Shown piece by piece: positions 4,890-47,911 of a stretch of 63,248 nt of DNA (position 1 is its first letter; every line of letters starts with the position of its first letter). The DNA is taken from the IMG/VR virus record IMGVR_UViG_3300034684_000231; one strand, given 5' to 3'. The notes beneath the pieces are model-generated. The model made no database searches, was not told where the DNA came from, and worked only from the letters and a program-made list of their open reading frames with translations. The translations under genes and the position numbers were made by a program. Source of the stretch: an uncultured virus (IMG/VR IMGVR_UViG_3300034684_000231). Its lineage: Duplodnaviria > Heunggongvirae > Uroviricota > Caudoviricetes.

Positions 4890-7800
4890 TTATAGCCATT
4901 TTGTTGCTCTTTCTTTTAACATCTGAAGTTCATCAAATAATTCGTCATGTCTGTTTCCTCTTACCGACATTATCTCTGCCATTGTATATCCATATGTTCC
5001 GTATTTTGTTATAATAGCTCTCCTTTGTTGAAATACTTCTGGGCCTATTAAGATGTATGGTAATAAGTTAATCATGTCACCGTCGTCGTCTCCAGCAATC
5101 TATTCTGCTACATGCTTTGGCACATCTATTGTATTATGTCTAGAAAAACCTACTATTCTAATGTGTGGTAAGTGTCCTATAATTGGATGCCTTTGCATGT
5201 AACCCCACATTTCTCCATATTTTGTAGCAAAATCAAATGCTTTGTATGGCGGCTCTAACACACGAAGTCCTCTGTTTAATTCTTCAATTGCTAGTCCGCC
5301 AGCACGTTCTGAGTATTGTAGAAAACCTCGATACTTGTCTATTAACTGCATTATCTATCTTTTCTGGAACGCTCGTGCGTTTTTATATTTTTGAATTTTT
5401 AGTATAGACAAATCTTCTAAGATAGGTACATTCTACTAAACAAGCTCGTATATTTCTCGCTCGTTTGCATATTTGCCCTATTCTGGATTATAGTAAATTA
5501 CATAATCTTTTAACTTATTATTCCAGTCTATAATTAGCGCGCTTCTAGACCATCTTTCAAAGAGGTTGTTCACTTTCATTTCTTTTTGTCCACTAACATA
5601 CTATTCGATTTCTGATATTTCGCTTGCAGGTAAATGTGATTTTAATTCGTCAAGAGTAATAACGTTACTTTTAACCTAAGAAGCTATGAGCTGTTGTAAC
5701 TATCGTTTCGGCATTCTTGTGCCACCTAAATCTTCTCTTGCTGTTGCATGCAAACCGCTAATGCCGATACCGTGCCTTTTCGAAAGTGTGCGTGCAAACG
5801 CTCTTGTCTGTATGTTGCCAAGTGTCATCATTCTACTGGAATAGAATTTAAACGACTGCATTGCGCGCTATGCATCACCACGCGCAACGTTTTGTAAGAG
5901 AGAATGAATTCCCTAGAACATATTCATGAACGTTTCTGCCTCAAGTGATAAGTGTAGTTGTGCGCCCGTGTTGTTAAACAACCTTGGAACATACATTTTA
6001 GCCATTTGAATGCCCGCGTCCCCAGCAGAAAGTGTAATTATATTACCTTGTTCTTTTGCTATCTGCGTTAATACTTTTGTCATTCTATATGTGCTCCATT
6101 TGTTAAGACCAATTTGGCCTGCCTAACCTGTAAGTGTTTCAAAGTATTGTGTTGCAACCGCTGGAATTAATATTTCTTCACCTGCAAATTGCTATAACCT
6201 TTTTGCTTGAGATTCAGTAATTGAGAATACTATGTTTCCCGTATCTAACTGAGTTCTTGGGTTTGTAAGTATGTCAGATAATACATCTAACAGATCCTAT
6301 GTTCTTTGAAGTCTGGCATCTTGTATTCTTGCAGATCTAAACTATTGTGCCATTTGTCTTAATCTTACTACGTTGTCTCGCACTACTTCTTGAGATTTAA
6401 TTGAACTAAATACATTTACAAATGGCTGTAATCCTTGCAAAAGCCCTATATTTCGCTATGAATGTATGCCTGCTCCTTTATTAATCTATTTTCTTGCGGC
6501 ATAATTTGGTTTAACATAACCTTTTTCTATCAAAGCCTATATTTGACCTGCCTATGCACCTTCTGATAGAGAGGTGGTAGTATTAGTAAGCATTATCGTC
6601 TTTTCAATATCATTGTCACTTGCGTCTGAACTTAACAATAAACTAAGCAAACCTGTTTGTTTGAATAAAGCAAGCTGTGGCAAAACCTGTGCAGATTGGT
6701 TTGAAATTTCAGTCCAATATGCTTGGTGGCTCTTCCCTGTATAGGCATATACTTTGTGAAAAATCAAAGGCATTGTAATATTTGTTCTTGCCCATTTGTC
6801 TCCTTCTTTTATATAAACAGTGCCTTTCATTTTGTTCAAGAATACATCTGACATTTTCTCTGTTACATTTTTTGTGAATTCATTCCACGCAACTGGTTTT
6901 GTAACGTCTATACCTTCAGCTATTTCAGGCAAGAGTTTGTTGAACATATCCTCGCCGTAGATATATTTATAAGCTCTGAGAGAACCTTGTAAAAATTCTG
7001 CTATTTTGTTCTTACGTTTTCCTTGAGTGTTTATGAATGCACCAACTGGAATTAATTGTCCGTTGATTTCGACAGCAATTTCTCTGTCAAAACGGAATGT
7101 TACCATACCTTTTGATCTTGCAATACCAGTTATTTTCAACTGTTCTGGTATATCTGCAAATGTAACTTTACCAAATTTATCTCTTGTCTAAATTTTAAGA
7201 GATTCAGCCAATTGTTTCTACATAAAATATGCGTCTCCAACCATTGTTAAATCAGTACCAAGCACCGAGCTAAAGAAGGATATGTTTTCTTTGTCTACAA
7301 CACCCGTTGGCAATAGAAAACCTGGCATTTCTGTTGTTTCAAGAGTTTCTTCATATACACCAGGCATTTTTACTTTTAAAAGCTATGCGGCCCTTTTTTC
7401 GTTGAGTTGATACACATAATCTACTAACTCTGAAGTTTTTCTGTATGTGTGATCGATTACAAGATCCGGTGCTTTTGCACCGTATGTATTGATAACACGG
7501 ACTGCGTCAGTCTATGCGGCCACTGGGTTAAACATTTCTTGAATAGGCGTTACAGCATGTCCGTACGGCTTTAATGCAACTGTTGAACCTACTGTGTTTG
7601 GCGACGAAATAGAAATAGCATCTGTTAAACGGTGAGGAACAATTGATAGTAATACGCCTTTGTAGTTAAATTGCTGAATGCCAAGTAAGTACTCAGGAAG
7701 CTGTTCTAACTCAAAAGTTGATTTGTACTATAAGTGCGAGTAATATAACTCTTTTGTGCGTTTAAGCATTCTGTTGTATATCCATTCATACACGTTTGAT

Positions 7801-10800
7801 TCTGTAGGTGTGCTTCCTATTATTGATTTCAATCTTTGAAATTGTGAGTTACTTAATTTTCCAAGACGTTGAGCAAAGAATTCTTTAAACACGTCTTCTG
7901 TCTATTCTTTTAGATTTATTTTTTTTGCGTTTAAGAAGTTAGTTAACACGTCTTGATTCATTACATCGTGTAAAACAAAGTATAATTCTGGGTCAATTTC
8001 TTGTGCATTTCTATGCGAAAGAAACATTGCTCTTAATAAGTCAATTGATTGGAATGTTCTTCCTGTTTGGGTGTAACTGTACATTCTATTAAAGAGCATA
8101 TTTATTAAATCTCTTCTTGCTTCGTACTTAATTCCTGTTTTTGCGGTTGTGTACATCATTACTGGTAAACCTAAATTACTTGGTTTATACATCATTTCTG
8201 CATATTGTGGCGCTAAAACTCCAAGCCATGTTTTGATAGCCTACATAGCAGCTTCAGGTTGATCAAATACAGTTTCAAATGCATAGCGCGCTTGTGTTTC
8301 TGTATAAGAAAATGTTTCCCCGCTTCCAGGAGTTACAATCAAACCTCCCGATTTGCTTTCGTCAAATGAGTATATAATACCAGTTTGGTATACTTTTATA
8401 CCTTCTCCTTGCCTCATTGCATCTTCTGACATTTCTTCGAAAAATTCATCTTCTTCAAGTCCCAAGTCTTGAGCTTCTATCCTACCTTCCGCGACATTTA
8501 AACTTGTTTGTTTGTACTTTAACACCCCTTCCGCTGGCAAACCCTATGTTTCAACATATTGAAATTGTTTTTGCATAACAGGAGGAACTACCTGCGATAA
8601 ATTCATGTCAGGTGTAAGAATTCCACCCTATATTAAAGAGCGTATTTTTTGATATGCCCCGCCTTTGAGCTATTCTTCAAAATATCTTGTGGTCCTCTAC
8701 ATTCTTGTAATAGCTTGTTTTCTCGGTTCACGTATAAATCTGTATGTAGCTAAGTTTGTAAGAGATGAAATTTGTATATACGGGAACATTGTTGCTTCTG
8801 ACATTGATTTCATCTTTCTTTTAACAAGATACTGTAACTAATAATCGCTTGCATAGTTGCCTTTTATAAAATCGTCCACAACATCTTTATATGTGTCAAT
8901 GGTCAAGTTTGCCGCCATGCCATAACTAGTGTCTTGCTACGCCTTGTACTGAATCATATCTGCTAGCTAACCAAATCTAAGCTATTGTCTGTCTATATAG
9001 CGAAGCGACGATTTTTGCAAGATATCTTGGAAAGATGCAAACGTTTTTGCTTTGCTAATTGTTTTTGCAAACGTTTTGTTTTCCATCGTTTCTTGAACTA
9101 TTGCTTTCAATGTATTTTCGTCAACATATTTGTATTTCGCTCTCAATTTAAGTGTGATATATTCTGGCGTCTACATAGGTTTATCTTGTCCAGGTAAAAT
9201 AAGCTTTGGTTTTTCAACCTGTTGCTATAATTGCTGCTCTGATTCTATTGGTAATATTATTTTAGGTTTTTGCGTACTAGCTTTTGATGGTTTTGCTTTC
9301 TTGATGTTTTTTAATTCTTGTTGAACGTCGGCTACAATATTCTGTACTAATTTCATCGAACGATAATCAATGCTTGACGGTTCTATACCAAGTTGTTCCT
9401 ACAGCACATCAATAAATTGTCTTTTTTGTAATGAAGCCCAGCGTTGATACGCAATATCATCTTCCTATAAATCTGAAACTTGTTGTGCAAAATTCATATA
9501 GCGTTGAAACAATACATCTAAGTTTTGTGAAATTGCTTGTTGCCCACCGAGTGCTCTTTCAAAACCAGTTTGGAATAGTTCTGTAATACCAGAAGCAATA
9601 TACTATCTTCTCATTAATTGTTCTCCTGATGAGCCAAGAGACAAGGTTTGCCCAACATTGATGTATTTTGTTAATGTGTCGTATGCTATGAGTTCTTTAA
9701 TACTTCGTTGAATTGATTGGTTTGTGACAATTGGTTGTATATCCTCTCTCATTGATTCGTATAGAAATTTAGCAACGTTTTCTATGTTACTTACATATTT
9801 AGAGCGTAAGTCTTTAAAGAACTAATCAGCACTTGTGGTCGATTTTACACCAGTAATGAATTCCTCAGTAAAACCAAATCTATCTAATTGATCCTATTTG
9901 CGTTTAAGCAAATTTAATATTTCGCCAGTTTTAAACTGGCTTAAATCACCAGAATATAGCGCATTGTAAATAGAAGTCAATATGTTGGTTGGTTCTTGAT
10001 CAAATGGAGTATTTTGAGCAAGCGAATTAACAAGAGACTATATGATAACTTTTGTGTTAGATTTGTCAACTGTTTTCTGCGCGTCTGCTTGAAGAACAAG
10101 CTAAATATTAATAGCCTATTCTTGTTCGTATCTTCTTAACTATTCAGCTACTGATAAAGGATTATTTAAATCAGCATCTTTAAACATAGCAGACAATTCA
10201 GATTGAAAAGATGGTCCTGTTCCGGCAGGAGATTTATCTTTAACTGAAATGCCAAATATGTTAGCAAGTTGTTGCTATAACTGATCTATAGATTTTCTAC
10301 TTACAGAAGTTACAGCATATTGTTCTTGTTTGGTTAACATTTGCGTAAGCTGTTCCTATGTATCAGCAACAAATGTTCGTAATGTACTTAATAAATCTAT
10401 AGAATCAGTCATATTATTTGCTAATATTTGCTAATCATGCATTTTTGCACTGCCAACAAGCAAGCTTGCTGTATTTCTTAACTAATGAGCTAATTGAGGT
10501 GATATAGGAGCACCAGCAGGCGTGATTGATGTAGCGGCTTCTTCAAACTATTGCATTACTTTATAATAATTAAACCCTTCTATATCAAACTACACATTTT
10601 TTGCTTTTTCAAGAGCCTATTTAAACGCATAAGAGCTTAGTATGTTTTCTGGCGCTATTGATAATTGCCTTAGCCTGTTCACAAATTCATCCGTTGACAT
10701 TGAAGTTGTTAAAAATGTTTTGAATGAACTACCAAGACTTATTGAACGTATAACAAAATTTGTCAAATCAGACAAGCTTTTATTAGGATCAAGCAAAGTG

Positions 10801-11633
10801 TCAACAACTATACCAGTAACACTTTTACCCTTTAAACCTATAGTTGCTGTAAAGACATCTGCAATAGGGGCATAACCTTTTACATTCCGATTAAATTTCT
10901 CCTATTTCTTTATGAATGTTTCTAGTCCTTGTTGAGAGAATATATCTTGCATTGCAAGATCTGGGTTGTGCCTATAAAACTGTGCAATAGACTTTAATGT
11001 ATCTTGATGTTGGCCAACCCATTTTTCTACAGCTCCTGTATACTTTGTGTACTATTCACTACTTTTATCAAGAAATCTTGAGCCAAAAGTCAAAAGTCTT
11101 GATTTCAGTTCTTCCGGGATTTTATCTATATCAGCGCCTGTACGGCCATATAACGTATTAAAAAACAAAAACAAATCATTGAACTACAACAGCTTATTTG
11201 TGTCTTCGGCTGAACTAATTGAACCTAACATTTGCGCGTTAAAACTTCCCATTAACTATTCATAGGAAGTAATTGCGTCTGTTATGCCTTCTGTCGTTAT
11301 TCCAGCAGGTTTAAATACATCTTTGTATAACCGTTTAAATGGCTCAATGTTCTTTTTTGCATCTATAACGAATGAATGTATGTTGCTAATTGTTTGTAGC
11401 AACTTAGTTTGTTTTGCTTTGTCAGGTGTAATATCTGTAATGACTTGTGGTAATTGTGTTTTAAGTTGCCAAATTAAATTGTTGACTTGATCAAGATCGC
11501 CTTGTTGTGCATATGTATCTATCTTTTTGACAACAGCTCGTAAATCTTCAGGTAAGCTAAGCTTCTTTTCAGGTATTTCTAATATTTGTCCTAAAAGAGC
11601 CTAAAAAGAAGGCGCTCCTGCAAACAGCTTCAT
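4890..11633 (-). CDS. Giant (~2247 aa) virion-type two-barrel RNA polymerase polyprotein, TAG-recoded
   Basis: SD AAGGAGG, ATG at 11633. Track ORFs at 8241, 7902, 6552, 5100 and 4890 share one frame and the upstream four end in TAG. C-terminal QRHPIIG...VAE*IAGDDDGDMI catalytic motif. The frame was spot-checked, not read exhaustively. Confidence 0.82.
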
Positions 11634-11650
11634 TATTTTTGCCTCCTTTA

Positions 11651-12391
11651 TCATCCGTATATTGCAATATATGGATTTGTGCCAAACACACCCTAGTCAT
11701 TTAATATTTGCCTTGTTACCATTGCGTTTTGCAAGCTACGCATAATGATTTGCTCTTCCTATTTAGAGAATCGTTGTGAGTCTTTATACTTTGGATTAAT
11801 GCTACCAGTAATTCCCTACAAGCGTCTGTAATATCTAAGTCTTTCAGCACGCTTTTTTGATTCTATTGCCTATGTTCCAATAGCTTCTGCAATTGTTAAA
11901 CCTATACTCCACATTTGTGTTCTTTGCCACATTGACATGCCAGCAAGGATTTTTCCAGACTTGCGTGTCAATGAAACTATTTTTTTTAATTCTGCTTCTG
12001 CTACATCATCTAATGTTTCTTTAATAGTGCCCTTTAAAATTTTTTGAGGTACTTTTAAAGCTTTGTGTACATCAGTAGGATATCCGAGCCATCCCATATC
12101 TAATTGTGTTATTTTTGGTAAATGTTTCTGTAATATTGGGCGTATATGAGTGAATTTGTTTTTAAACTAAGGAGAAATGAGTTTCTCATATATAACTTTG
12201 TTTAATTTTCCAAGTCCTTTTCCAAATTGAATGTTTGGTTGTAATGGCTAAAGAGCCATCATGCTCAGAAATGATTCAACCTCATACTACCCTATCATTG
12301 ACAGTGATAGTTTAAACATCAACGAACCAAAATTTACATTACTAACCGGCTGTACTTCTTGTGTGTTTAAGTCATATATGAAGCTTGGCAT
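11651..12391 (-). CDS. Hypothetical virion/ejection-type protein, 246 aa, TAG-recoded
   Basis: SD AAGGAGG, ATG at 12391, includes ORF 11870..12097, ends TGA TAA; directly upstream of the giant RNAP gene. Confidence 0.7.
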
Positions 12392-13912: not shown

Positions 13913-13937
13913 ACCGGGCATTTAAGCCCGGTTTTTT
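13913..13937. terminator. Bidirectional intrinsic terminator
   Basis: AACCGGGC-atttaa-GCCCGGTT hairpin with A/T tails between convergent genes. Confidence 0.7.
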
Positions 13938-15750: not shown

Positions 15751-15826
15751 GGGGGCGTAGCTCAATTGGGAGAGCTCCGGTCTCTAAAATCGGTGGTTGC
15801 GGGTTCGAGTCCCGTCGCCTCCACCA
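15751..15826 (+). tRNA. Amber-decoding tRNA (anticodon CTA) with tRNA-Ala identity elements
   Basis: Acceptor stem GGGGGCG/CGCCTCC gives G1:C72, G2:C71, G3:U70; discriminator A73; encoded CCA. Anticodon arm CCGGT-CTCTAAA-ATCGG with CTA at 15784-15786; canonical D and T arms. Confidence 0.95.
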
Positions 15827-18139: not shown

Positions 18140-18300
18140 AGCTACTTGTTGTAATTGTATATTTCTTATACAATTAATTGTTTAATGATTATGCATTTAA
18201 TTGCTCACTCTCTATACATTTAATTGTTCAATAGTTATATAATTGATTGTTCAAGCTTTATACAATTAATTGTTCAACTTTTATACATTTAATTGTATAA
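18140..18300. repeat. About 7 copies of a 23-bp-period TACA(A/T)TTAATTGT repeat
   Basis: TAATTG-like cores at 18152, 18175, 18198, 18221, 18244, 18267, 18290. Confidence 0.85.
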
Positions 18301-18320
18301 ACTAGCAGGAGGTGGCTAGA

Positions 18321-22695: not shown

Positions 22696-22735
22696 TTTTG
22701 TGGTATAATATGTGTGTCGTTAGGAGGTGGTATTA

Positions 22736-23612: not shown

Positions 23613-23641
23613 GTTTCAGCACAATTTAGGAGGTGTATATA

Positions 23642-24478
23642 GTGTCTGCTAAAGTTATTAGTATTTATAATCTTAAAGGCGGAACAGGTAAAACAACATT
23701 AACTTTGGCACTTGGTTATTTTTCACCTGCAGTAAGACAAAATCTTAGAATTCTACTAATAGACTTAGACCAACAAGCAAATCTTACGGCATCGGCGTTG
23801 CCAAGCAATGTATTTCAAGAAATGTTTGAAAGCAAAAGGACAGTTGCACGCTTATTTGACGAAAAAGTAACTTTCGACCCACATGAGTTAGTATATCACA
23901 CGTTTCTAGAAACCACAGATATTGTTCCATCTGCGCTTGAATTGGCAAGCAGAGAATTTGAAGCATTTAGACTAATCGACGGCAAGCTACGAATTAAATT
24001 ATTTGTCGATCAATTAAAAGATGAATATGACCTAATAGTTATAGATACCCCACCAGCTTGGAACGTGTTCAGTTGGAATGCTCTCTATGCGTCCGATTAT
24101 TTAATTATGCCAACAGCTCCTAATTTCTGGAGCATTGAAGGAACTAGAGTTGTAATGGAATTGCTTGAACCTTTGCTAACATCTCCTAATTATAATCTTC
24201 AATTACTTGGTTTTGTAGTAAATTTTGTTGATAAGCGTTACAAAGCCCATAAATCATATATAGAATACCTACAACACACATATGGTTCAAGCATATTGGG
24301 TGTATTAGGCAAAAGAACTTTATATGAAAATCTATCGCTTATCAAAGATCACTTAGAAATATTTAAACTATTAAACGATGCAGCTGCCAAAGATTTGTTT
24401 AAAGTACTAGAAAACATCTTTACATTGATTTTTGATGAAGATAAATCAAAACAACAAAAAGGAGTGTTAAACAGATGA
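23642..24478 (+). CDS. parA: ParA/Soj-family partition ATPase
   Basis: Deviant Walker A NLKGGTGKTT, LLIDLDQQANLT, YDLIVIDTPP, NALYASDY. Confidence 0.95.
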   Translation: MSAKVISIYNLKGGTGKTTLTLALGYFSPAVRQNLRILLIDLDQQANLTASALPSNVFQEMFESKRTVARLFDEKVTFDPHELVYHTFLETTDIVPSALELASREFEAFRLIDGKLRIKLFVDQLKDEYDLIVIDTPPAWNVFSWNALYASDYLIMPTAPNFWSIEGTRVVMELLEPLLTSPNYNLQLLGFVVNFVDKRYKAHKSYIEYLQHTYGSSILGVLGKRTLYENLSLIKDHLEIFKLLNDAAAKDLFKVLENIFTLIFDEDKSKQQKGVLNR

Positions 24479-24807: not shown

Positions 24808-25096
24808 ATTGTATCTAATTGTATCTATTTTTGGTAAATATTCAGTAAACATTGGTTAAAAAAATATTACGACAGATACAATTGGATACAATTAGATACA
24901 ATTAGATACAATTTCAACAGATACAATTAGATACAATTTAACAGATACAATTGGATACAATTAGATACAATTAGATACAATTTAATGTTTGTGGATACAA
25001 TTTTAAAACATCTCTTAAGCAAGTATATATGGGGGTTTAAACACAAAAATACAAAAATAGAAACAAAATTAGAAATAGATACAATTAGATACAATT
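24808..25096. repeat. (A/G)GATACAATT 10-bp iteron array, about 13 direct plus 2 inverted copies; candidate origin
   Basis: Tandem decamers directly upstream of the HTH Rep-like gene. Confidence 0.85.
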
Positions 25097-25112
25097 AAAA
25101 GGAGAGGAGATT

Positions 25113-26093
25113 GTGAACAAGAAATTTAATATGGGGGGATTGGACAAACTTCTTAAACAAATTGTAACAAACAAAGGTATAAAAGCTACTGCAGGTACTA
25201 GAAAAATAATATTAAAGCTGATTACAGAATATAATTTACCAATCAAAACAAAGACTACTGTGCTTGCAAACGAATTGGGGGTATCACGTATAACAATCCA
25301 GCGTACAATAAAGGTTCTTGAAGATTTAGGATGTAACGTTTTAACATCACCAGGACGAAACGGATTTATAAAAATTGTAGATTTAAATAATATAACTTCC
25401 GAATTAGACAATTTCACAAAGTCTGAAACGCCTGGTAGTAGTAGTAATAATAATATATATATAAATATAAAAAACTACTACTACCGCCTGCGGGGAATTG
25501 GATACGAAATTGACGGCAGAAAAGTGAAAGTTTTGAACAAGACACTGATGAAGAGCTTTATCACCGTGTTGTCATTGTCTAAATTCGTTGAAAATTATAA
25601 TGTCACTAGCAAGACGTTTATACATGTATTACATGAATTTATGAAGCACGACGCTTTGATACAGTTGGTTGCATTTATACACTTTCATGATCAAACGCAT
25701 CGTGGAATAAGAAGTCCAATTGATTGGCTCATGTCCAGAATTAAGAGCGAAGATTTTAATTATGAACTTATTCACGAGAACGAATTGCTCAATAAAGTGG
25801 TTGATAAAGCACAGGCGGCTTATGTAATTTCAGAAGGTGATTATCACGATGCTATTTCACAGCTGAAATTAATAGAAGTGCCTCGTTTGGTATATGAATT
25901 GACAGATTCATACGTTTCTGGATTTAACGAAGAAAAATACATCAAATCAATCAAAATGTTGTATAATATAGCTAGGAGAGCTGATGAATTGTACAAAGTA
26001 TTCTTTGAGGGGTATGATCCGCAACTAACAGAACATATGTTAAAAGCTCTCTTAAAGCGAGGTGATTCAAATGAAAACAATGAAAGAATATGA
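25113..26093 (+). CDS. HTH protein, putative replication initiator
   Basis: TTVLANELGVSRITIQRTIKVLEDLG HTH; low-complexity linker; IRSPIDWL motif; preceded by iterons. Confidence 0.65.
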   Translation: MNKKFNMGGLDKLLKQIVTNKGIKATAGTRKIILKLITEYNLPIKTKTTVLANELGVSRITIQRTIKVLEDLGCNVLTSPGRNGFIKIVDLNNITSELDNFTKSETPGSSSNNNIYINIKNYYYRLRGIGYEIDGRKVKVLNKTLMKSFITVLSLSKFVENYNVTSKTFIHVLHEFMKHDALIQLVAFIHFHDQTHRGIRSPIDWLMSRIKSEDFNYELIHENELLNKVVDKAQAAYVISEGDYHDAISQLKLIEVPRLVYELTDSYVSGFNEEKYIKSIKMLYNIARRADELYKVFFEGYDPQLTEHMLKALLKRGDSNENNERI

Positions 26094-26838: not shown

Positions 26839-27390
26839 TTATCGAACAAGTAAAGTAAATATTTTATCAATTATCAAATATACCAATCCACCGCCACCAA
26901 TTATTGATATCCAAAAACGTGTTTTGTCTAATGTCTGTTTCTCTTGTTTGATCTTATAAGTCTCCATCATTGCATTGTATCCATCTTTCATGTTTTGAAT
27001 TAGCTATTCGACTTGCTTTTTGTTCATTTCCAAGGCCTATTTCAATGTCTCATCAACCATTTGTTGATAATCCCTTTTTAACATGTTGATAAAGTCATGT
27101 CTCCATCCATTATCCAAGTGTGACTGCAAATCTTCAATTCTATTAAACAGCTTCTTTATATCTTGGGATAATTCGTGCATTCTATTTGTTAGAGCTTGTA
27201 TTTTCATTTCCTGTTTGTAATTCTTATCATCTACTTCGCTTATTAACTATTGCAAAGCATTGATTGCATCTTCTGTTACTTGATAGTACTTACTAAATTG
27301 TTCTTGTAGCTTTTCTACCGTAACACGAAGCGTTTCTATATGTTTCTATTGTTCTTCTGCATCTGTAAGTTTAACTTCGTGTGTATCCAT
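26839..27390 (-). CDS. Coiled-coil protein with C-terminal TM helix (XhlA/holin-like architecture), 183 aa, 4 TAGs
   Basis: SD AGGAGG, ATG at 27390; ends FWISIIGGGGLVYLIIDKIFTLLVR then TAA. Missing from the ORF track. Confidence 0.7.
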
Positions 27391-27403
27391 TGCCAATCCT
27401 CCT

Positions 27404-28075
27404 TTATATCAATTTAGCTTTTGGATGTTCTTTCAAATCTTGTGGAGAAATAAATTCAAATGGTTGATCAAACTCAATTCCACCTTCGTGAAGCATTCTC
27501 TAAACAAGTTCGGAACACATCATGTTTTTTGGATTATTATATGCAAGTAAATCTTGCACTTTTTCTTCGAGATCTTCATAACCTACAAATTTACCAAATG
27601 CACCAACAATTTCAGCTATTGAGTTTAAGCCTAAAGAAGCGTAGTCATATGGTAGATTCCAATACTTATCTACAGCTTTAAGCATTCGTTCTGCATCTAC
27701 GCCTTCAAATCTTAGCACATCAACCATCTAATAGTGTGAAGGAGGATACTTTAGCAATTTTACTCCTGACAGCCATGCTGCTAATACCCATCCTTTACCC
27801 AAATACAATTCTGCGTGTATATATTCCTGCTGGGCCAAGCGCACTACCTGTTTTGCAACTGCAGAGGAAACAAATTCTGCCGTGGGAGGAACAAGAGAAA
27901 GAATTGCATTCTATATAGTTTCTCCGAGGATCTTTTTCATGTAATTAATCATTCCTTCTAAAAACAGCTCTGCTTTAAACTCTATCTAGTTCTTGAGGGC
28001 TTTGTAAGGTTCGGAATAATAATAGGTTGGCAAAAGTAAAACATCACCAGGTTGAAGTTTGTCAATTTTTACCAT
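27404..28075 (-). CDS. Permuted papain-like NlpC/P60 (YiiX/YaeF-type) hydrolase, 223 aa, TAG-recoded
   Basis: LQPGDVLL, YIHAELYLG, LPYDY, MMCSELV*RM, ISPQDL, with His before Cys. Confidence 0.85.
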
Positions 28076-29745: not shown

Positions 29746-29841
29746 TCCCCCCTTTTCTTTTTTCTTCTCGTGTGCTATCCCGTTTAAATAAGGTTTAGAC
29801 GATTTGTGTCGTTTAGCAAACACCAAAAGAAAAGGGGGGAA

Positions 29842-30033: not shown

Positions 30034-30176
30034 TCCCCCGGTCTCTCTTTTTTTATCACATGTATTTATTATTTTTTTCTTTTGCTTAGACTATCCCGGC
30101 CCAGAGGTCGTTTCGACGATTTGTGTCGTTTAGCAGGATTGAACCTGCTAAAAAAAATAAAAAGGAGGAGATATTT

Positions 30177-30443: not shown

Positions 30444-30680
30444 AGGAAGGCCCCAACACGGGGCTTTCCTTTTTTAAAAAACCCGGCGCATAGGAAAGCA
30501 AATGCTCAGACGGGTGAAAAATTATAAAGAGGCGAATTATAATGTTTTTGAAGAAAGAATTTGAACGGTGTATTTTTTCTACCAAAGATAACTATCCCAG
30601 CCTGGAAGTTGTTTCGACGATTTGTGTCGTTTAGCAGGTTCAAGCCTGCTAAAAAACTAAAACTAAAAGGAGGAGATAGT

Positions 30681-32346: not shown

Positions 32347-32763
32347 GAGGGGGCATTTCCCCTCTTTTTTATTTCTTCCCCCAGTTCTATGTATGAAAGT
32401 GGGTGGTTTAGACGTTTTAAGGCCACCGCAAGCCACCCGACACTTTCACAAAGCCGCCGCACGTTAACATACAATATTAATCTAAATATGCCAATTTTAT
32501 ACTAAAAAATTTCAAAATTGCTTTCCCTCCCTTAGATAGGCTCAATTTCGTGAAACCCGCATAAATAAACATTTGAGAAATATGTCACAATCTAAATTAA
32601 TTTATCAATTTAAGTTTCGGAATTGTTGCGATTATGTTGGGGCGGGTGTTTTTTCTTTTTGTGGAAGGATACCTATCCCTGCTGGAACGTTGTTTAGACG
32701 ATTTGTGTCGGTTAGCAGGATTGAACCTGCTAAAAAACTAAAACTAAAAGGAGGTTGTGCATT

Positions 32764-32979
32764 ATGTTTAAACAAGTATGTGTTGGTAGCGAAGTGTTAG
32801 ATCTTTACTTTACTGATGAACCAGGGGTTTTCCTTGGGGTGCGTCACAAAGGCTATGAACAACCAATCGCATACGAAAACATATTTGGCGAACCTGTAGC
32901 TAGATACACGAATGACGAAATGTTAGAAATATCACAAGAAGAATTATTCGATATTATTACGGGAGGTGTAAAAATATGA
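32764..32979 (+). CDS. Hypothetical protein
   Basis: SD after the leader motif. Confidence 0.6.
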   Translation: MFKQVCVGSEVLDLYFTDEPGVFLGVRHKGYEQPIAYENIFGEPVARYTNDEMLEISQEELFDIITGGVKI

Positions 32980-33629
32980 AAATGCAAATATTGAAGGTAA
33001 AAAGTACAGAAGAATTAAAAGATTTTAAGAACTTTGAAGGTGTATTTGTATATTGGAAGCACCCACGAGCTTTCGCAGCAGTCAAGGCAGCGTTCGGAAC
33101 CTATGAAGGAAAAGTAGGATACATCAATATAGTACCAGTAGCAAACTGGAGGCAATTCAAATCATTAACAAGTAAAAACATACCAGTGTATGTGCTCGCA
33201 GATCAAAATTCAATTCAATCAGCCGTGCTAAACGGCAACGATAACACATATATTGTAGTAGATCTTTCAAATTTGGATATTGCATCCATTCCACAAGAAG
33301 TCGAAGTTATACGCATGAGCCCAGATAAGTATGTTGCAGAGAACCCAGATGCAGTCTTTGTATACAACGCACAAAGTATTCAAGCATTCGACGCAGTTCT
33401 AAACATTCCACCAGAACGCAAAAGATATTACAGCAAAGTCAACGAAGCTAAATTTTTACTAAACAACGAAAACGCCGTTTTAGTTCTTGGCATGGATGTT
33501 CCTGTCAAACAAGTTCTGTTCTCTGCATTATTCAGACCAGTACCTAGAATCAGAGTTTTAATCCCACCAAAGGACGGCGACAGGGAAGAAGTCGACAAAG
33601 TGATAGACGTAACAGATCTCTTTGAATAA
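32976..33629 (+). CDS. Hypothetical protein
   Basis: ATGA-coupled ORF of 217 aa; TTCG-loop terminator at about 33638-33668. Confidence 0.75.
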   Translation: MKMQILKVKSTEELKDFKNFEGVFVYWKHPRAFAAVKAAFGTYEGKVGYINIVPVANWRQFKSLTSKNIPVYVLADQNSIQSAVLNGNDNTYIVVDLSNLDIASIPQEVEVIRMSPDKYVAENPDAVFVYNAQSIQAFDAVLNIPPERKRYYSKVNEAKFLLNNENAVLVLGMDVPVKQVLFSALFRPVPRIRVLIPPKDGDREEVDKVIDVTDLFE

Positions 33630-33704
33630 TCACAATAGGCCACTCGCCTTCGGGCGGGTGGCTTTATTTTCCTCTATACCCCCCTATATACGTGCCTATC
33701 TAAA

Positions 33705-33895
33705 ATTAGACGACTTGTCTAAACGATTCCAATATGTGTCAGACGATAAGCCGACAAAACCCGACATTGTCTGCAGACAACCCGACAAATCACCCGACAT
33801 CGTCGACAAATTACCCGACAATCCAGACAATGCGGCCGACATTGTCGACAATTCCCCCGACATTGTCAGACATCCACCAGACATTGTCGATAAGT
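33705..33895. repeat. C(C/A)GACA(A/T) / GACATTGTC repeat cluster
   Basis: More than 12 copies of (C/A)GACA, several within the quasi-palindrome GACATTGTC, in an intergenic region. Confidence 0.8.
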
Positions 33896-34295: not shown

Positions 34296-34901
34296 ATGAA
34301 ATTAGTAGATTTTGATGCTCTAGATAAAGCAATTGAATATGAGCATGAGCATATAGATATAAAAGGCGCAGCACATAATCTTAGAGGACTTAAACAACTA
34401 ATGGGCCCTGTTACTAGTGTATGGTCTGATTTCGTATTGGAATCCGCTATGCGCTCTGGATTGACTGAAGATGAGAAAAAGGCTCTCGTCCGAGAGATGG
34501 AGGCTGATATAAGAAGAGCTGTTAAAAAGGATAAGTCAAAAGTTGTCTATGGCGCTATTGTGGCATTTGTTGCACTTAAACAATGGCATCTTGATGACTT
34601 TGCAATTACATATGCGCAAATGATTGGACTTAATATGAAGAAATTTCTTGCATATATTTCTAACTTTCAGTCTACAGGTGAAAAAGTAATACGCGGCTTT
34701 CAAGTTGTTTACGGAAAAAACGAAGAACTTGCACCAATATTTGCAAAGTTAATACCAGTTGCACAGGCTAATACATTTCAGAGAGCAAGTAGAAGGAGAA
34801 TTAATTTTATAATTGAGAGATTGCCACGCTATATAAGCCTATTTAAACAAATAAATAATTCAAAAGGAGGAGATAATAATGATATTAGGGAGAATATATA
34901 G
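34296..34901 (+). CDS. Hypothetical protein, first gene of the RNAP operon (possible RNAP subunit)
   Basis: SD GGAGG; overlaps the next gene; weak similarity to the giant RNAP near 8550-8750. Confidence 0.7.
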   Translation: MKLVDFDALDKAIEYEHEHIDIKGAAHNLRGLKQLMGPVTSVWSDFVLESAMRSGLTEDEKKALVREMEADIRRAVKKDKSKVVYGAIVAFVALKQWHLDDFAITYAQMIGLNMKKFLAYISNFQSTGEKVIRGFQVVYGKNEELAPIFAKLIPVAQANTFQRASRRRINFIIERLPRYISLFKQINNSKGGDNNDIRENI

Positions 34902-36108
34902 ATGGGTTAAAGTAAATACAGCTGCTATAGTAGAACTTCAAGATAAAACAATAGTTGCGCCGACAACAGAAGATGACTATAAAAGCCCTCAAGCATATAG
35001 AGGAGCCAGTAGAGTATATGCAGGAATGTTTGCTGGCATAATTAAATGGTTAACAAAAAATAACATGCTCTATGTCATACCAAGAGCCGAGCTTAAGACT
35101 AAGACTTTCTCTAAAGGCATTGACATAGAGAAATTCGACGGCTTGAGTCTTAGCTCAATTAATAGGCCATTCTCTAGATTAGTCGTATCATCGCACGAGA
35201 AATGCGGTATCGAAAGATGGGCTAATCCATTCGCACTTATAACAGACGGAACTAGAAATTTGAATACATTCTTCTATCAAATGCCTATCGTTAAATTGAG
35301 TAACAACCTACTTAGATTATTCCACAAATCTAAGCTTCCAATTAAAGGGCTTGGTCATGAGTTATTTGGTATTCCAGGAATTACAATCTTCCTAGACAAA
35401 ACAATGCCAGAAACTAATAAATTGATCCAACAAATTACAGGACTTCCAATAAGTCTTGAAGGAGATGGCATCATTGTGTCTAAGCAATGGAAATCTCAGA
35501 TTAAGGTTTTAACAGATTTAGGCGAAGAATTAGATCTACCAACCACTTTCAAAATGCAGGGATTAGCAAGATCTAAGGGAATCACAATTGCAGAATTTGA
35601 AGCCAACAGAGTTCTTATCCGCATTGGAGAACAAATCTTTCCAGTAGACGTAATAATGAATACACAAGGTAAAAGACTTAACAAGGCAGCAAATATAACA
35701 CTTTCCGCAATGAGACTTCGCAAATTTCTCGGAGAAGAAATACCAACTATCGATACAGCAAATGTTCAACAATTAATCGAGCTAAAGAACAAATACAAAT
35801 ATATGACAGGCACACTAATAGTTGGCGGAGAAGAAGTCGGAGAAGTTTTAGTTGGAATTAATAAATTCTACATAGATTTAACTCACAAAATGCAGCCAAA
35901 AGTAGATAGTCCAAATATATCATACGTCCAAGCAAAGCAAATTCTCAAAGCTATTGATTATCCGTTGCTAGATAGATTTCCAGAAAAGAAAATTGATGAA
36001 AATCTAAAATTCATAGAAAAACAAATGGATCAAGTCATGCAGATTATAAATGCCATAAATCACGAAGAAGGAGGGGATTTTAATGATAACGAAGACATTA
36101 TGTCCTAG
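34879..36108 (+). CDS. Non-virion two-barrel RNA polymerase, subunit 1 (beta-like barrel)
   Basis: LEGDGII, KMQGLARSKGI and MNTQGKRLNK match MVGDAYF, KITGIARSKGM and INTQGKRKNK in the giant ORF. Confidence 0.75.
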   Translation: MILGRIYRWVKVNTAAIVELQDKTIVAPTTEDDYKSPQAYRGASRVYAGMFAGIIKWLTKNNMLYVIPRAELKTKTFSKGIDIEKFDGLSLSSINRPFSRLVVSSHEKCGIERWANPFALITDGTRNLNTFFYQMPIVKLSNNLLRLFHKSKLPIKGLGHELFGIPGITIFLDKTMPETNKLIQQITGLPISLEGDGIIVSKQWKSQIKVLTDLGEELDLPTTFKMQGLARSKGITIAEFEANRVLIRIGEQIFPVDVIMNTQGKRLNKAANITLSAMRLRKFLGEEIPTIDTANVQQLIELKNKYKYMTGTLIVGGEEVGEVLVGINKFYIDLTHKMQPKVDSPNISYVQAKQILKAIDYPLLDRFPEKKIDENLKFIEKQMDQVMQIINAINHEEGGDFNDNEDIMS

Positions 36109-37078
36109 GTTTGAAAACGATATAGATGCAATCAAATGGCTTAGGGATAATGTGCCAGAACACTATCACTTTTATGACACTGTACTCCATGTTCTTGCTT
36201 CTCCAATTCTAGATGGGATTCCAGTATTCGGAGAAGAAGTTAAAGAAATGTTAGAACAAATAAATAAAACCCCAGTTTGGCTTGGAGATAAAGTATTCGA
36301 AATAGATGTAAAACCAAGAAGCTTATATTGGGAACTTCAAGATAATTTTGACGAAATGTTATCGGATTTAATGAAAGGCAATGATATGCCTGAATTTGAA
36401 TCTGAATTTACAGCAGAAAAATACTATGCAGCCACAGCATTATTGACAACAATAATTGACACTAATGTTTCAGCTACATACGTCTTCTCGAGTGTTGAAT
36501 CAAAACAATTTGCAAAAACATTAAAGATTCTTACAAGAAATCTTGAAAGAATTCAGGCAAGTTTAATCAAAGTTGCAGCAACTGAGATCGCAAATAAGAA
36601 AGATATCGTTGGTATTCGTGGAAGGCATATAACTCTTGATAGAAGCTTTAGAAATTTTCTTGCACCAGTAGATATACTACAAGAAGTACTTAAGAAACCA
36701 CAAATAGTTAGATCTATTGTTGTAGTAAATGGAGATACAGCATATACGTGTAATCTTAAAGGCGTAAGAGAACTACTCCAAAAGTTTGGCATTAACGGTA
36801 TCAAGAGAGTTGTAAGACTACATTTCAAAGATATGAAAAAGCTAATAGAATTTGATCCAAACAACGATACAATAATAGGCCATGTGTTTAGACATCCGAT
36901 TATAGGCTATATCGGCGTTGGCACAGTTCAGCCCGCTAATATCAATGGCATAGGTGTGCCAGCTGATGTAGCTGAAAAACTTGATGGTGACGATGATGGA
37001 GATATTATTGATTTAGTACCATCAATTATTGTTAAAAATAAGAAATTCTCATTTGCTACTACAGTTCTTGATCTTTAA
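36083..37078 (+). CDS. Non-virion two-barrel RNA polymerase, subunit 2 (catalytic DxDGD barrel)
   Basis: VFRHPIIG...IGVPADVAEKLDGDDDGDIIDLV: the R-x-P plus DxDGD signature of double-psi beta-barrel RNAPs. Confidence 0.82.
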   Translation: MITKTLCPRFENDIDAIKWLRDNVPEHYHFYDTVLHVLASPILDGIPVFGEEVKEMLEQINKTPVWLGDKVFEIDVKPRSLYWELQDNFDEMLSDLMKGNDMPEFESEFTAEKYYAATALLTTIIDTNVSATYVFSSVESKQFAKTLKILTRNLERIQASLIKVAATEIANKKDIVGIRGRHITLDRSFRNFLAPVDILQEVLKKPQIVRSIVVVNGDTAYTCNLKGVRELLQKFGINGIKRVVRLHFKDMKKLIEFDPNNDTIIGHVFRHPIIGYIGVGTVQPANINGIGVPADVAEKLDGDDDGDIIDLVPSIIVKNKKFSFATTVLDL

Positions 37079-37142
37079 TAAGCAGAGGGGGGGTAATTCC
37101 CCCTGTTTATTTTTAAAAAATAAATGCAGAGGAGGGATAATA

Positions 37143-37553
37143 ATGATTAAAACGATAGAAAGTAGAACAATATTAAAACCATGGTTAGATCAAACAGTAA
37201 AAGTAGTAGGCCAGGTAGCTGATTTTGCTACAGCCAAAGTAACAGGTAACTCAACAGAAAGACGACCTTCAATCTTGTTAAAAAGACTTACTATTGTTAA
37301 AGGAAAACATATAATTCGACTTGATCATATTTGGATTATTCCAAAAGGTGATCTTTTGCACAAAGAGATTGCAGATGGTGATTGGGTACAATTTAAGGCA
37401 AAGGTGTACCAGTATCACAAGTTTCACAAGAGACTTAAAAATACAATTGTCTGTTCGTATGGTTTAACTGATATTTCAGAATTTGAAGTATTATGGGAAA
37501 ATCCAAGCCCGAGTAAATTTCTTGAAGATGTCTATGTTGCAACGCTTTTATGA
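37143..37553 (+). CDS. Hypothetical beta-rich basic protein
   Basis: SD GGAGG; LDHIWI, GDWVQFKAKVYQY, SYGL. Confidence 0.7.
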   Translation: MIKTIESRTILKPWLDQTVKVVGQVADFATAKVTGNSTERRPSILLKRLTIVKGKHIIRLDHIWIIPKGDLLHKEIADGDWVQFKAKVYQYHKFHKRLKNTIVCSYGLTDISEFEVLWENPSPSKFLEDVYVATLL

Positions 37554-41297: not shown

Positions 41298-41927
41298 ATG
41301 CCATACTATGCAGTTAAAGTGGGAAAACAGCCTGGAATATATACTTCATGGGAAGAAGCAAAACAACAAGTTAACGGATATCAAAACGCAGTATATAAGA
41401 AATTTAAAACAAAAGAAGAAGCTTTGGCGTTTTTAAATAACAACAAATTTAATAGCGATCACAATTCTGTTGATAACAACTTTCCAATAGCGTATGTTGA
41501 TGGTTCTTTTAGAGCAGAAGTTCCATCTGCTGGTATATATATAAAGCTTCCAAATGGTACAAGTCATGAATTTAGCTTTATTATTGATCAATTTAAAGAA
41601 AACCATCAAATTGCAGGCGAATTATTTGCATCACTATATGCAATTAAATGGGCAAAAGAAAAGGGCTACAAGAAATTAACTATAGTGTATGATTACGAAG
41701 GCGTTCGTGCTTTCGCAACAAACGACTGGGTTCCAAAAAGTAAAATTGCTAAATTGTATAGGAAACTATATAACAAGATATCTAGTGGCATAGAAGTAAA
41801 CTTTGTGAGCGTTAAAGCTCATACAAATATAGATGGCAACAACAGAGCAGATAAACTTGCTAAAAACGCATTCTTAAACGGCAACAAATGGCTCTTCATA
41901 GATCAAATTATTCAGTCATTACAGTAA
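41298..41927 (+). CDS. rnhA: Ribonuclease HI with N-terminal hybrid-binding (Cauli_VI) domain
   Basis: YYAVKVGKQPGIYTSWEE..YKKFKT; AYVDGSF; IAGEL; YDYEG; VKAH; NNRADKLAK. Confidence 0.93.
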   Translation: MPYYAVKVGKQPGIYTSWEEAKQQVNGYQNAVYKKFKTKEEALAFLNNNKFNSDHNSVDNNFPIAYVDGSFRAEVPSAGIYIKLPNGTSHEFSFIIDQFKENHQIAGELFASLYAIKWAKEKGYKKLTIVYDYEGVRAFATNDWVPKSKIAKLYRKLYNKISSGIEVNFVSVKAHTNIDGNNRADKLAKNAFLNGNKWLFIDQIIQSLQ

Positions 41928-42007: not shown

Positions 42008-42667
42008 ATGTTCGGCAAAAGAACATTGAAAGCTATTGCAAGAAAAGTTAATTCTACTCATAATATAATTAAATTAGCTAATAGTTTATATTCATTAGAC
42101 ATTGAAGAAAATGCAGAATTGATATATGAAATTCTAAAAGAAGTATATGAAAAAGTTTATATAGTACCAAAAAGTCAAATACTCGATTTAAAAGTTTTGT
42201 ATAAACTTGCTTTATTAAGGCATGTAGAGTATGTTAAGAATTACGATTATAAGAATATGAGTTTTGAAGAGATTATTGTAAAAGCTAAAGACGATAATAA
42301 TATTCGCTTTAGTGAATTAAAAGAGAAAATAAAGAAAGAAGTAATTGCAATGGCTTCAGAAGTACCTGTTGCTTTTGAAGATACAACAGAGAAATTAAAC
42401 AGTTGGTATAAGATGGCATATGATAATTTGCATAATACAAATGGTTATAGATTGACTTATTTATTGTACTTGCCAGCACGATTGTATCCAATATCGTCAG
42501 ATAAACTGGAAAATATATTTAGAAATTGCTACAGCGCTAGTATTACACCAAAAGTATCCGAGTATTACTATGCTGTATTGATTTTTGAAAGGTATAATGA
42601 CAATCATGATTTAATACCAAGTGATATTAAGATTGATTTAGATATTAAAGAGCTTATTCTCAGTTAA
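42008..42667 (+). CDS. Hypothetical protein
   Basis: ORF with SD; N terminus resembles that of the 58557 gene. Confidence 0.7.
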   Translation: MFGKRTLKAIARKVNSTHNIIKLANSLYSLDIEENAELIYEILKEVYEKVYIVPKSQILDLKVLYKLALLRHVEYVKNYDYKNMSFEEIIVKAKDDNNIRFSELKEKIKKEVIAMASEVPVAFEDTTEKLNSWYKMAYDNLHNTNGYRLTYLLYLPARLYPISSDKLENIFRNCYSASITPKVSEYYYAVLIFERYNDNHDLIPSDIKIDLDIKELILS

Positions 42668-42681
42668 TGGAATTTAGACGG

Positions 42682-43190
42682 GTCAACTACCCACCACCTA
42701 TAGAGGCGGGGGCTTGTGAAGAACAAGCCATAGTTGATTAGACTCAGCCAGGGGGTATTAACCCTATCGGGCTACGTTATGCAGGAATATATAGGCACCA
42801 TGGGATACTCCACAAGTTCCATGCAAAATATATAGATATAAGAGATGGCTCAATTAAAACAGGACAGGAACTTTTCAATGGTAGAAGATGTCGTAACAAA
42901 AACTTGAATACAGAAAACCTTCGTAAGTTTAGAGGGCAGAAAATCTCTGCTGGTAGAAGAAGTATCCGCACACAAAGATATTTTTACCAACCAAAAGACA
43001 TTGTCATCTATGAAGGTAGAAAATACACTGTTAAGGTTATCCAAAACAAAGGTGCTTATATTAAGTTAGCAGAGATTTGTAAGCCAGTTAAAACTGAATT
43101 GGTTAAGCCATACGTGTTTAGGAAGGGTTTATGTGTTCTATAGGTGCAATTCATCACCCGCCTATAGAGGTGAGTGTCTTCTTGCATAGT
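42682..43190 (+). mobile_element. iscB: Internally deleted IS200/IS605 IscB-type element (omegaRNA/HEARO 5' part plus C-terminal IscB fragment)
   Basis: Left end GTCAACTACCCACCACCTATAGAGGCGGGGGCTTG..GTTGATTAGACTCAG..CTACGTT; truncated basic ORF 42904..43143; right-end hairpin CAATTCATCACCCGCCTATAGAGGTGAGTG. Confidence 0.75.
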
Positions 43191-47422: not shown

Positions 47423-47911
47423 ATGTTTAAACAGTACATCTTAGACGGCTGGAAAAAATGGGGAAATCACATATTAGAAATAACAAAAGAATAGGAAGTT
47501 GATCCGGCATTAGTAGGCACAATAATTACAATAGAATCATCCTGGAAACCAGATTAGAGAACGAATTGGGCAAGAGGGCTTATGGGAATTTCTAAGTCTG
47601 CTGTAGAAGATGTCAACAGAATATACAATTTTTCTTTCACATATGATGATATGTTTGAGCCAAAAAAGAATATTACAACCGGTATTTATTATATTCGATA
47701 TATCAATACATACTTCTTACAAGAAATTCCAACTGAAGTAAAAATTATATACATAGGCCTTGCGTATAATGCGGGCATAGGATTTGCAAAAGAATTCTTT
47801 AACGAAACAAGCATGTACAATGCACTTAAAATTATTCCGCAGGAAACACAATACTATGTTTGGAAGATTGCATACTTATACCCAGTATGGAAAGCATTTT
47901 TAAGTAAATAA
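47423..47911 (+). CDS. Soluble lytic transglycosylase (SLT), 162 aa, 2 TAGs
   Basis: SD AAGGAGG, ATG at 47423; VDPALV..IESSWKPD*R..ARGLMGI..NI..G..Y..LAYNAG..PQETQYYV; TAGs at 47492 and 47555. Confidence 0.9.

Follow-up and report, generated by a model that had tools for sequence, protein, structure and literature searches.

Evidence for a compact, split two-barrel RNA polymerase paralogous to the core of a giant recoded protein in an uncultured phage

That a phage can carry two RNA polymerases (RNAPs) is known already. In Thermus phage P23-45, the virion enzyme gp96 and the non-virion enzyme gp64 are paralogous two-barrel polymerases acting in sequence: the virion RNAP, located at the N-terminus of the tape-measure protein gp96, transcribes the first genes, including the gene of gp64, and gp64 then transcribes the early and middle genes (Chaban et al., 2024, PMC10770324). 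The jumbo phages phiKZ and AR9 encode paralogous virion and non-virion multisubunit RNAPs (PMC7824862), while YonO, from the Bacillus prophage SPbeta, is active although no trigger loop can be recognised in it (Forrest et al., 2017, PMC5467207) and has been placed with the RNA-dependent-polymerase-like branch (Iyer et al., PMC7824862). Regarding the solved single-chain enzymes, the bridge helix and the trigger loop are said to be conserved (PMC10770324). Here, we analyze a stretch of 63,248 nucleotides (IMG/VR record IMGVR_UViG_3300034684_000231; hereafter the window) from an uncultured phage of about 32% G+C, whose parent contig is recorded as 125,248 bp. Three consecutive genes, P0004, P0002 and P0003 (Table 1), are supported by sequence, profile and fold comparisons, conserved synteny and fused relatives as encoding a second, split and compact two-barrel RNAP, paralogous to the core of a giant open reading frame (ORF) of the same genome. 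We assign a probability of about 0.72 to the full account, according to which these products form a minimal heteromeric DNA-dependent RNAP, the non-virion partner of the giant late enzyme, with a switch of genetic code acting as a lock. What is new is the family itself, its minimal three-part architecture devoid of a bridge-helix/trigger-loop region, the series of split and fused forms and the different codes in which the two paralogs are written.

As in P23-45, two paralogous two-barrel RNAPs appear to be encoded, one within a giant late protein (structural in P23-45) and one small (early in P23-45), both with very low sequence similarity to known polymerases save for the DxDGD motif. Unlike gp64, which is a monomeric single chain, the small enzyme of the window is cut into three genes; moreover, searching the PDB with profiles revealed no sequence relation between the two systems, P23-45 keeps to one genetic code, and four invariant motifs of the window family are absent from 10 supplementary files of PMC10770324. 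With the jumbo phages, the locus would share a paralogous virion/non-virion pair in one genome, barrels lying on separate chains and an extra phage-specific subunit. Both the virion and the non-virion enzymes of phiKZ and AR9 reportedly have split β and β' subunits. These jumbo enzymes are built from four to five subunits, including a β N-terminal piece and a β' C-terminal module with bridge helix and trigger loop, whereas the window enzyme would consist of three small subunits with nothing after the catalytic barrel, its second copy is one giant chain, and there is no sequence-level match between them (tblastn, 50,697 phage records). By analogy with YonO, which is about as large in total, the window enzyme may represent a minimal DNA-dependent RNAP built on two barrels; unlike the window enzyme, YonO is a single chain, no sequence match links the two, and the β-like piece of the window resembles cellular β.

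Table 1. Positions of the polymerase genes, their giant paralog and associated elements in the window
Feature	Position	Strand	Description
P0004	34296..34901	+	201 aa, ATG at 34296; probable third subunit (N-terminal polymerase module)
P0002	34879..36108	+	409 aa; β/Rpb2-like subunit, barrel with basic residues
P0003	36083..37078	+	331 aa, last base of the stop at 37078; β'/Rpb1-like subunit
Giant paralog	4890..11654	-	2254 codons, 56 in-frame sense TAG; core at about residues 1345-2205
Suppressor tRNA, anticodon CUA	15751..15826	+	G3:U70 and A73
Terminator-like hairpin, 12-bp stem and T-run	33637..33664	+	end of the preceding unit
Terminator-like hairpin and T-run	37086..37104	+	8 nt past the P0003 stop; repeat family D10
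CCGACAttGTC-type near-palindromic repeat array	33760..33890		family D14, 4 copies; within the 630-nt leader from the upstream terminator to the P0004 start

The evidence that carries this interpretation begins with the relation between the small genes and the giant ORF, whose core comprises a β-like region (residues 1345-1615) and a β'-like catalytic barrel ending at GDDDGD (2188-2193). The sequence-only reading had listed six collinear motif pairs between the two copies, and all six hold. Five of them lie in two strong BLASTP high-scoring segment pairs (HSPs), which extend the similarity to 229 and 117 columns, well beyond short motifs. The first, between P0002 87-288 and giant residues 1345-1570 (61/229 identical, E 6e-16), contains the pairs GDGII/GDAYF, KMQGLARSKG/KITGIARSKG and NTQGKRLNK/NTQGKRKNK; the second, between P0003 202-317 and giant residues 2095-2203 (37/117 identical, E 2e-11), contains the RHPIIG pair and VAEKLDGDDDGD/VAE(TAG)IAGDDDGD. 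The sixth pair, VGIRGRHIT/IGISGLHAT, forms a separate and weak HSP (E 1.7), which is nevertheless collinear and whose R, H and T positions are invariant in the P0003 family. Profile comparisons with hhalign of each family against the two known giant homologs confirmed these relations for P0002 (99.1% probability, E 5.4e-19, 225 columns) as for P0003 (95.5%, E 1.5e-8, 56 columns), with the same outcome when TAG was read as alanine. The split and giant copies are 27-32% identical.

Structural models led to the same assignment. The AlphaFold2 model of P0002 (predicted local distance difference test, pLDDT, 78.7; predicted template modelling score, pTM, 0.73) gave 56 Foldseek matches at E<=1e-3, those listed being all multisubunit RNAP entries, chains B or C. 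With VIA, a comparison independent of Foldseek and covering 48,161 chains, nine chains reached Z>=8. All nine are second-largest subunits of RNAPs, with Z between 14.0 and 17.1 over 196-290 aligned residues. Residues 8-342 of the model align to β/Rpb2 chains, for instance 8qma_A (Z 17.1, root-mean-square deviation 3.9 A, 254 aligned), and the jumbo-phage enzymes are among the matches (AR9 7s00_C, Z 14.9; phiKZ 7ogp_C, Z 14.8). The next row falls to Z 4.4, with background scores of 4.4 for crAss-like gp66 (6vr4_B), 4.1 for P23-45 gp96 and 3.7 for RDR2; the modelled β-like subunit matches the cellular type far better than it does the P23-45 enzyme. The model of P0003 (pLDDT 79.0, pTM 0.50) comprises a helical N-terminal part followed by the catalytic barrel (176-331), which VIA aligns to the double-psi barrels of RNAP largest subunits and of other proteins; its top Foldseek rows are all multisubunit RNAPs, the best being the AR9 non-virion enzyme (7s00_d, E 7e-4). 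For both models, jumbo-phage enzymes rank with the closest structural matches.

Both proteins also carry the motifs expected of such barrels, and the assignment of P0003 leans more on them than on its fold. In P0002, GDG (195-197), ARSKG (230-234) and NTQGKRLNK (261-269) are present; GDG, ARSKG and MNTQ..R.NK are invariant in 10/10 members of the family and, among the basic residues of MNTQGKRxNK, R266 and K269 are invariant and K265 is found in 90% or more of these 10 sequences. In P0003, RGRH (179-182), FRHPIIGY (269-276) and DGDDDGD (301-307, with D303, D305 and D307 forming DxDGD) are found, and DGDDDGD, FRHPIIGY and RxRH are invariant in 8/8 members; the DxDGD motif is further present in the giant ORF and in every fused relative inspected. 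As modelled, P0002 is a cut-down β and P0003 a cut-down N-terminal half of β', and the split enzyme is of the cellular and jumbo-phage β-β' kind, not crAss-like. The gene boundary between P0002 and P0003 falls at the β/β' boundary of the cellular enzymes. The placement of the two barrels on overlapping genes of 409 and 331 aa, as proposed from the sequence, is exact in its coordinates, and the folds match β and β'. Taken together, we regard a functional polymerase complex of P0002 and P0003 as highly probable.

Known databases gave little help in recognising these proteins. Pfam and PHROGs searches with P0001-P0004 returned no meaningful match and Pfam searches with 25 neighbouring ORFs were nearly empty; sequence and profile searches of the PDB (family profiles A1 and A2, and the giant ORF) retrieved nothing relevant, and 50,697 GenBank phage records, queried by tblastn with P0002, P0003 and the giant ORF, produced no match. 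Scans of IMG/VR with A1, P0025, P0024 and P0027, and a reference-genome scan with A2, found none. Relatives were nonetheless found elsewhere. A large protein collection yielded 8 further P0003-like clusters (229-321 aa) and 10 P0002-like clusters (253-410 aa), at 40-70% identity, and profiles compared exhaustively with 1.84 billion representatives recovered only 23 relatives at E<=1e-3. The gene order P0004/P0002/P0003 recurs in four metagenome loci (L001, L002, L004 and L005), in three of which the flanking genes, homologs of 32976-33629 and 37140-37553, recur as well. Other relatives are fused: both barrels are on one chain in P0025, P0024 and P0027, single chains of 703 and 720 aa carry both, P0003 aligning to residues 420-695 of the 703-aa P0025 (E 7e-26), and in P0027 and P0029 (801 and 802 aa) all three modules follow one another as the genes do in the window, with the P0004-like domain first. 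Forms of about 900-1700 aa and a giant homolog of 2412 aa complete this set.

The gene layout of the window has to be considered along with these fused forms. P0004/P0002 and P0002/P0003 overlap by 23 and 26 nt, respectively, and at both overlaps the GGAGG ribosome-binding site of the downstream gene sits within the preceding gene, each junction having its own ATG; overlaps and internal ribosome-binding sites of this kind probably entail coupled translation. The single-chain relatives of 703-802 aa, together with junctions made of overlaps in different frames, might also be read as signs of decay, the three ORFs being what is left of a single polymerase gene that frameshifts or stops have disrupted and whose enzyme no longer works. 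Such decay is, however, extremely improbable, as the same split and lengths are found in the 8 and 10 further clusters and in four other loci, each junction has its own GGAGG site and ATG, the catalytic motifs are invariant and the split point coincides with the β/β' boundary. A working split enzyme is hence preferred, its three products amounting to 941 residues, that is about one-third of the combined size of bacterial β and β', if we take the latter to have their usual sizes. The two flanking hairpins would bound the three genes as one operon; terminator-like sites are frequent in this area, with 31 observed between 29 and 38 kb vs 6.2 expected.

The first of these genes was suspected from the sequence to be a third piece of the polymerase, and several observations now favour this idea: its fixed upstream position, its homology to the N-terminus of the 800-aa chains and a model of the complex. 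A P0004-family gene lies directly upstream of the β-like gene in L001, L002, L004 and L005. The family counts 9 other clusters, with K33, MGPVT, W43, D45, E69, D71 and IR..VKK.K as invariants, and P0004 matches the N-terminus of the 801/802-aa single chains (hhalign 96%, E 4.3e-9, 62 columns; BLASTP E 6e-5), in which the domain order is the gene order of the window. A multimer model of the three products, which had been proposed as a check, was run and places P0004 against both other chains, with P0004 scored at ipSAE 0.82, 0.79 and 0.80 while the best of 3 controls reached 0.00. The ipSAE mark is met by 116/157 solved complexes and by 2/215 mismatched pairs, a calibration that is approximate for this three-chain model, built from custom alignments. 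The runs share at least 89% of their contacts, with pLDDT of at least 83 for P0004 and about 85 for the other chains. According to the model, the P0004 interface includes the family-invariant residues M36, T40, D45, E69, I72, R73, V76, K78, F161, R163 and L176, and P0004 would contact a long helix (152-171) and residues 272-276 and 301 of P0003, as well as several parts of P0002, including residues 262, 267, 269-270 and 273-274 of the NTQGKRLNK loop region. The model supports binding of P0004 without demonstrating it, and we consider it very likely, if slightly less so than the P0002-P0003 complex, that P0004 is a physical subunit of the polymerase. A TFIIB- or cyclin-like nature of P0004 was discarded, the Atlas score of 0.77-0.79 lying in the noise range and 0/9 family members matching TFIIB (Pfam, E<=10).

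A distinctive feature of the split enzyme is where it stops. P0003 ends 24 residues past DxDGD and the fused relatives end there too, which leaves no room for a bridge helix or a trigger loop downstream. No Rpb1-type domain was detected in P0004-family members nor in the scanned neighbouring ORFs. It could be speculated that P0004 stands in for the missing β' C-terminal functions, or that it helps to recognise promoters, as does the fifth subunit in the enzymes of jumbo phages. The lack of a region after the catalytic barrel is also relevant to a different function altogether, as a two-barrel enzyme might act as an RNA-dependent RNA polymerase, as a primase-like enzyme in replication or as a DNA polymerase of the PolD kind. 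The superfamily does include RNA-dependent RNA polymerases and archaeal PolD (PMC10770324; PMC7824862), and genes of replication type occur in the same block as the operon, namely an RNase H (41298-41927) and, upstream, ParA and iterons. The β-like model, on the other hand, scores Z 14-17 against the β subunits of DNA-dependent RNAPs and only 3.7 against the RNA-dependent enzyme RDR2, its paralog resides in a giant late protein as in known virion transcriptases, and the precedents, P23-45, phiKZ and AR9, are all transcriptases. A function outside transcription therefore appears quite improbable, albeit less so than a decayed gene, and a DNA-dependent RNAP remains the preferred assignment.

Further evidence on the two enzymes comes from the genetic code. 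The sequence-only reading had proposed that the two copies are written in different codes, and this is borne out: P0004, P0002 and P0003 contain 0 internal TAG codons and two of them stop on TAG, vs 56 sense TAG in the giant ORF. Its description of the split copy as TAG-free applies to internal codons but not to stops, P0004 and P0002 both ending on TAG, with a back-up TAA three codons on and a back-up TGA two codons on, respectively; P0003 terminates with TAA TAA. Such TAG stops with nearby back-ups fit a correct ending before suppression and tolerance afterwards. The giant ORF belongs to a minus-strand block (1-15115) that also contains the large terminase (2512-4230) and a PhoH-like ATPase (13937-15115); these genes are open only with TAG as sense, the giant ORF having 56 TAG and the others 3-12. 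Each of the 10 TAG-containing ORFs taken as the late set has 3-56 sense TAG, as opposed to 0 in the 32 ORFs of the TAG-free set. From about 17 kb on, plus-strand genes are nearly all free of internal TAG. The sense-TAG exceptions of this region are an HNH endonuclease (42667-43173, +) with 3, a transglycosylase-like gene (47423-47911, +) with 2 and two minus-strand genes (26839-28075) with 4 each; as these sense-TAG genes lie within the TAG-free region, the code boundary runs gene by gene and not by genome half.

The meaning of TAG in the late genes is probably alanine rather than glutamine, as judged from the suppressor tRNA (Table 1) and from alignment columns. G3:U70 together with A73 is the identity set of alanine tRNA, recognised by its synthetase independently of the anticodon. 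When the terminase and PhoH were aligned with standard-code homologs, the TAG columns held mostly small or hydrophobic residues: alanine in 3/3 at TerL 378 and 507, A/M/A/A/A/V at PhoH 219, A/L/A/S/S at PhoH 194, V/A/V/V/A/I at PhoH 388 and L/L/L/L/I/L at PhoH 285. Over 17 usable columns, BLOSUM62 sums were +57 for alanine, -5 for valine, -6 for serine and -65 for glutamine. At the TAG of the catalytic context (VAE-TAG-IAGDDDGD), the homolog on a 158-kb contig carries alanine. Of the 54 TAG positions of the giant ORF compared, 23 stand opposite 'Q' in the homolog as translated in the database, which probably reflects TAG called as glutamine by the gene caller. The similarity of the tRNA itself is mixed: one E. 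coli-genome match is annotated as tRNA-Trp, phage CUA-type tRNAs reach 83% and, among the matches listed, 16/25 are tRNA-Ala at 77%. A composition test of alanine against glutamine was uninformative, the late genes being richer in both, and no tRNA genes were found in L001-L006.

This locus shares with recoded phages late sense TAG, early genes in the standard code and its own tRNA(CUA) (Borges et al., 10.1101/2021.08.26.457843; Peters et al., PMC9523058), a pattern that fits with recoding gating the translation of late genes. Within the excerpted text of Borges et al. (10.1101/2021.08.26.457843), TAG to glutamine, which is code 15, and TGA to tryptophan are the only reassignments reported. 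Unlike code 15 phages, in which TAG occupies glutamine columns and the suppressor tRNA is of the glutamine type, the window has TAG columns fitting alanine and a tRNA with G3:U70 and A73. No report of TAG-to-alanine reassignment in phages, nor of recoded phages whose two-barrel polymerase is split or accompanied by a second one, was found in the literature searched, whose coverage did not extend to subscription journals. Many crAss-like phages recode TAG in late genes, and we know of no second, small polymerase from them. A crAss-like affiliation was considered for the window and rejected, its nearest terminases being those of Moorella phage MTATph1 and Bacillus phage 0305phi8-36 (about 30% identity) and gp66 reaching only Z 4.4. 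The giant ORF does resemble gp66 of crAss-like phi14:2 in being a giant, apparently virion-type protein with a C-terminal two-barrel core (PDB 6VR4; 10.1101/2020.03.07.982082). The sequence-only reading holds in the main and is refined on three points: the enzyme is modelled as the β-β' kind and not as crAss-like, it has three subunits, and late TAG is probably alanine.

A second, diverged phage appears to retain both enzymes. The 2412-aa homolog of the giant ORF lies on a contig of 158,442 bp that is reported to carry, in addition, all three split subunits; identities to this relative are 43% for the giant protein, 70% for the β-like, 50% for the β'-like and 64% for the P0004 protein, with catalytic motifs invariant between both giants. 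As both enzymes were kept by two diverged phages, the duplication is older than their divergence. In a tree of the β-like region (23 rows), the giants are nested in the clade of split and fused-700 forms (support 83/92, branch length 3.42), but a topology that puts the giants outside all small forms also survives the approximately unbiased (AU) test (p 0.27). Thus, while the idea of a polymerase duplicated within one genome stands as far as two paralogs in one genome are concerned, the place and time of the duplication, and the split or fused state of the ancestor, are left undecided by this tree. Another relative, P0030 (1676 aa), combines the same polymerase core with membrane segments at its N-terminus and a C-terminal region that NCBI names 'SLOG family protein'. 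Its cluster occurs on contigs of about 60-116 kb, of which some bear the label of Mesotoga metagenome-assembled genomes, and it is another giant, possibly virion-type, member of the family.

The undecided branching and the low identity of the copies (27-32%) are compatible with a history in which no sequential virion/non-virion pair exists, the split enzyme having been acquired separately from another phage and working alongside or instead of the giant one, whose module would be a relic or serve in ejection. Yet the giant keeps every catalytic motif, invariant between giants 43% identical, both enzymes occur together on a second contig, and the strict partition of TAG usage speaks for different expression times. 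We thus consider separate acquisition improbable, though the least so of the alternatives discussed here, and we lean moderately towards a division of labour between a non-virion and a virion enzyme.

According to this sequential scheme, the three genes would be translated early under the standard code of the host, with coupled translation probable before TAG suppression begins. The basic residues K265/R266/K269 would come from the barrel of P0002 and the Mg-binding aspartates D303/D305/D307 from that of P0003, while P0004 would be a helical subunit packing on both proteins. Once assembled, these products would form a non-virion polymerase taking over the transcription of the phage. Activation of tRNA(CUA) would then permit the translation of the TAG-rich late genes, including that of the giant polymerase-bearing protein, which, being full of sense TAG, can be synthesised only once the tRNA(CUA) of the phage is active and which would be packaged for the next infection. 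The code switch would hence add a translational lock on the late polymerase copy. The strict TAG partition between the gene sets is the argument for different expression times, and packaging of the giant protein in the virion is suggested by its size, by its place in a terminase-adjacent recoded late block and by precedent.

Several points weigh against this account. The whole case is computational and the phage uncultured, so that catalytic activity, the DNA template, stoichiometry, the genes transcribed and virion packaging are properties that we infer. The expression timing proposed for both enzymes derives from codon usage and analogy alone. The AlphaFold2 models were built from shallow family alignments (8 and 10 sequences), and the fold support for P0003 is middling, its best VIA match (2pmz_A, Z 7.1) being tied with non-polymerase barrels. 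Bridge helix and trigger loop have no obvious place in the split enzyme. Regarding P0004, the 700-720-aa fused forms lack its domain in the same chain, sequence and profile comparison detected no counterpart in the giant ORF, and the scoring of the three-chain model covered the P0004 interface and not that between P0002 and P0003. The polymerase nature of the giant ORF rests on paralogy and motifs, sequence searches having found no match to crAss-like gp66 or to any solved polymerase. Finally, a promoter search assigned none at the operon, sigma-70-like sites not being enriched (34 vs 28.4 expected).

Other elements surround the polymerase operon. The CCGACAttGTC array in its leader (Table 1) looks like a set of regulator-binding sites and is a candidate operator array for the operon. 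Just upstream, an element of about 90 nt recurs at 29798-29818, 30115-30135, 30616-30636 and 32697-32717, with a degenerate fifth copy near 31162; in this element, a CTATCCC box is followed by GTTTCGACGATTTGTGTCGTTTAGCA, frequently by a hairpin, and by the ribosome-binding site. It precedes small genes, each followed by a terminator-like hairpin. Its 21-mer core has 4 matches vs 0.01 expected. The element may be a promoter specific to the phage or the 5' leader of a cluster of early genes. A copy before the polymerase operon was considered and rejected, the CTATCCC box alone being present and the remainder poorly aligned. Farther upstream, dense 23-bp repeats (TATACAATTAATTGT-type) and 10-bp repeats (GATACAATTA) at 18106-18323, 21963-22700 and 24862-25107 surround a ParA-like gene (23633-24478) and a helix-turn-helix protein (25113-26093); the arrays resemble iterons or a partition site, a hint of plasmid-like maintenance or of a replication origin. 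On the other side, the window encodes a reverse-transcriptase-like protein (52148-53170, +; phrog_2825, E 5e-59; phrog_1423 'Reverse transcriptase', E 5e-14) and a 512-aa Ro60-like RNA-binding protein (60683-62218, +) with TROVE and Ro60 von Willebrand factor A domains (Pfam E 2e-5 and 1e-12).

Phage transcription enzymes are models of how small an RNAP can be and of how the cellular enzyme may have come to be assembled from parts. A more far-reaching interpretation of the present family, which we hold only tentatively and consider rather unlikely as a whole, would make it an undescribed lineage with the smallest 'multisubunit' RNAP (three subunits, 941 aa and no bridge-helix/trigger-loop module), in which P0004, set against the catalytic loops of both barrels in the model, may replace the β' C-terminal part or give promoter recognition and which would be part of a two-code pair with late TAG read as alanine. 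The split, two-module-fused and three-module-fused forms constitute a natural series for probing the minimal needs of a two-barrel transcriptase. Moreover, the paralog pair, with a TAG stop in one copy and 56 sense TAGs in the other, offers a built-in control for the idea that recoding times late expression. The reading of TAG as alanine, if true, would add to the genetic codes known from phages.

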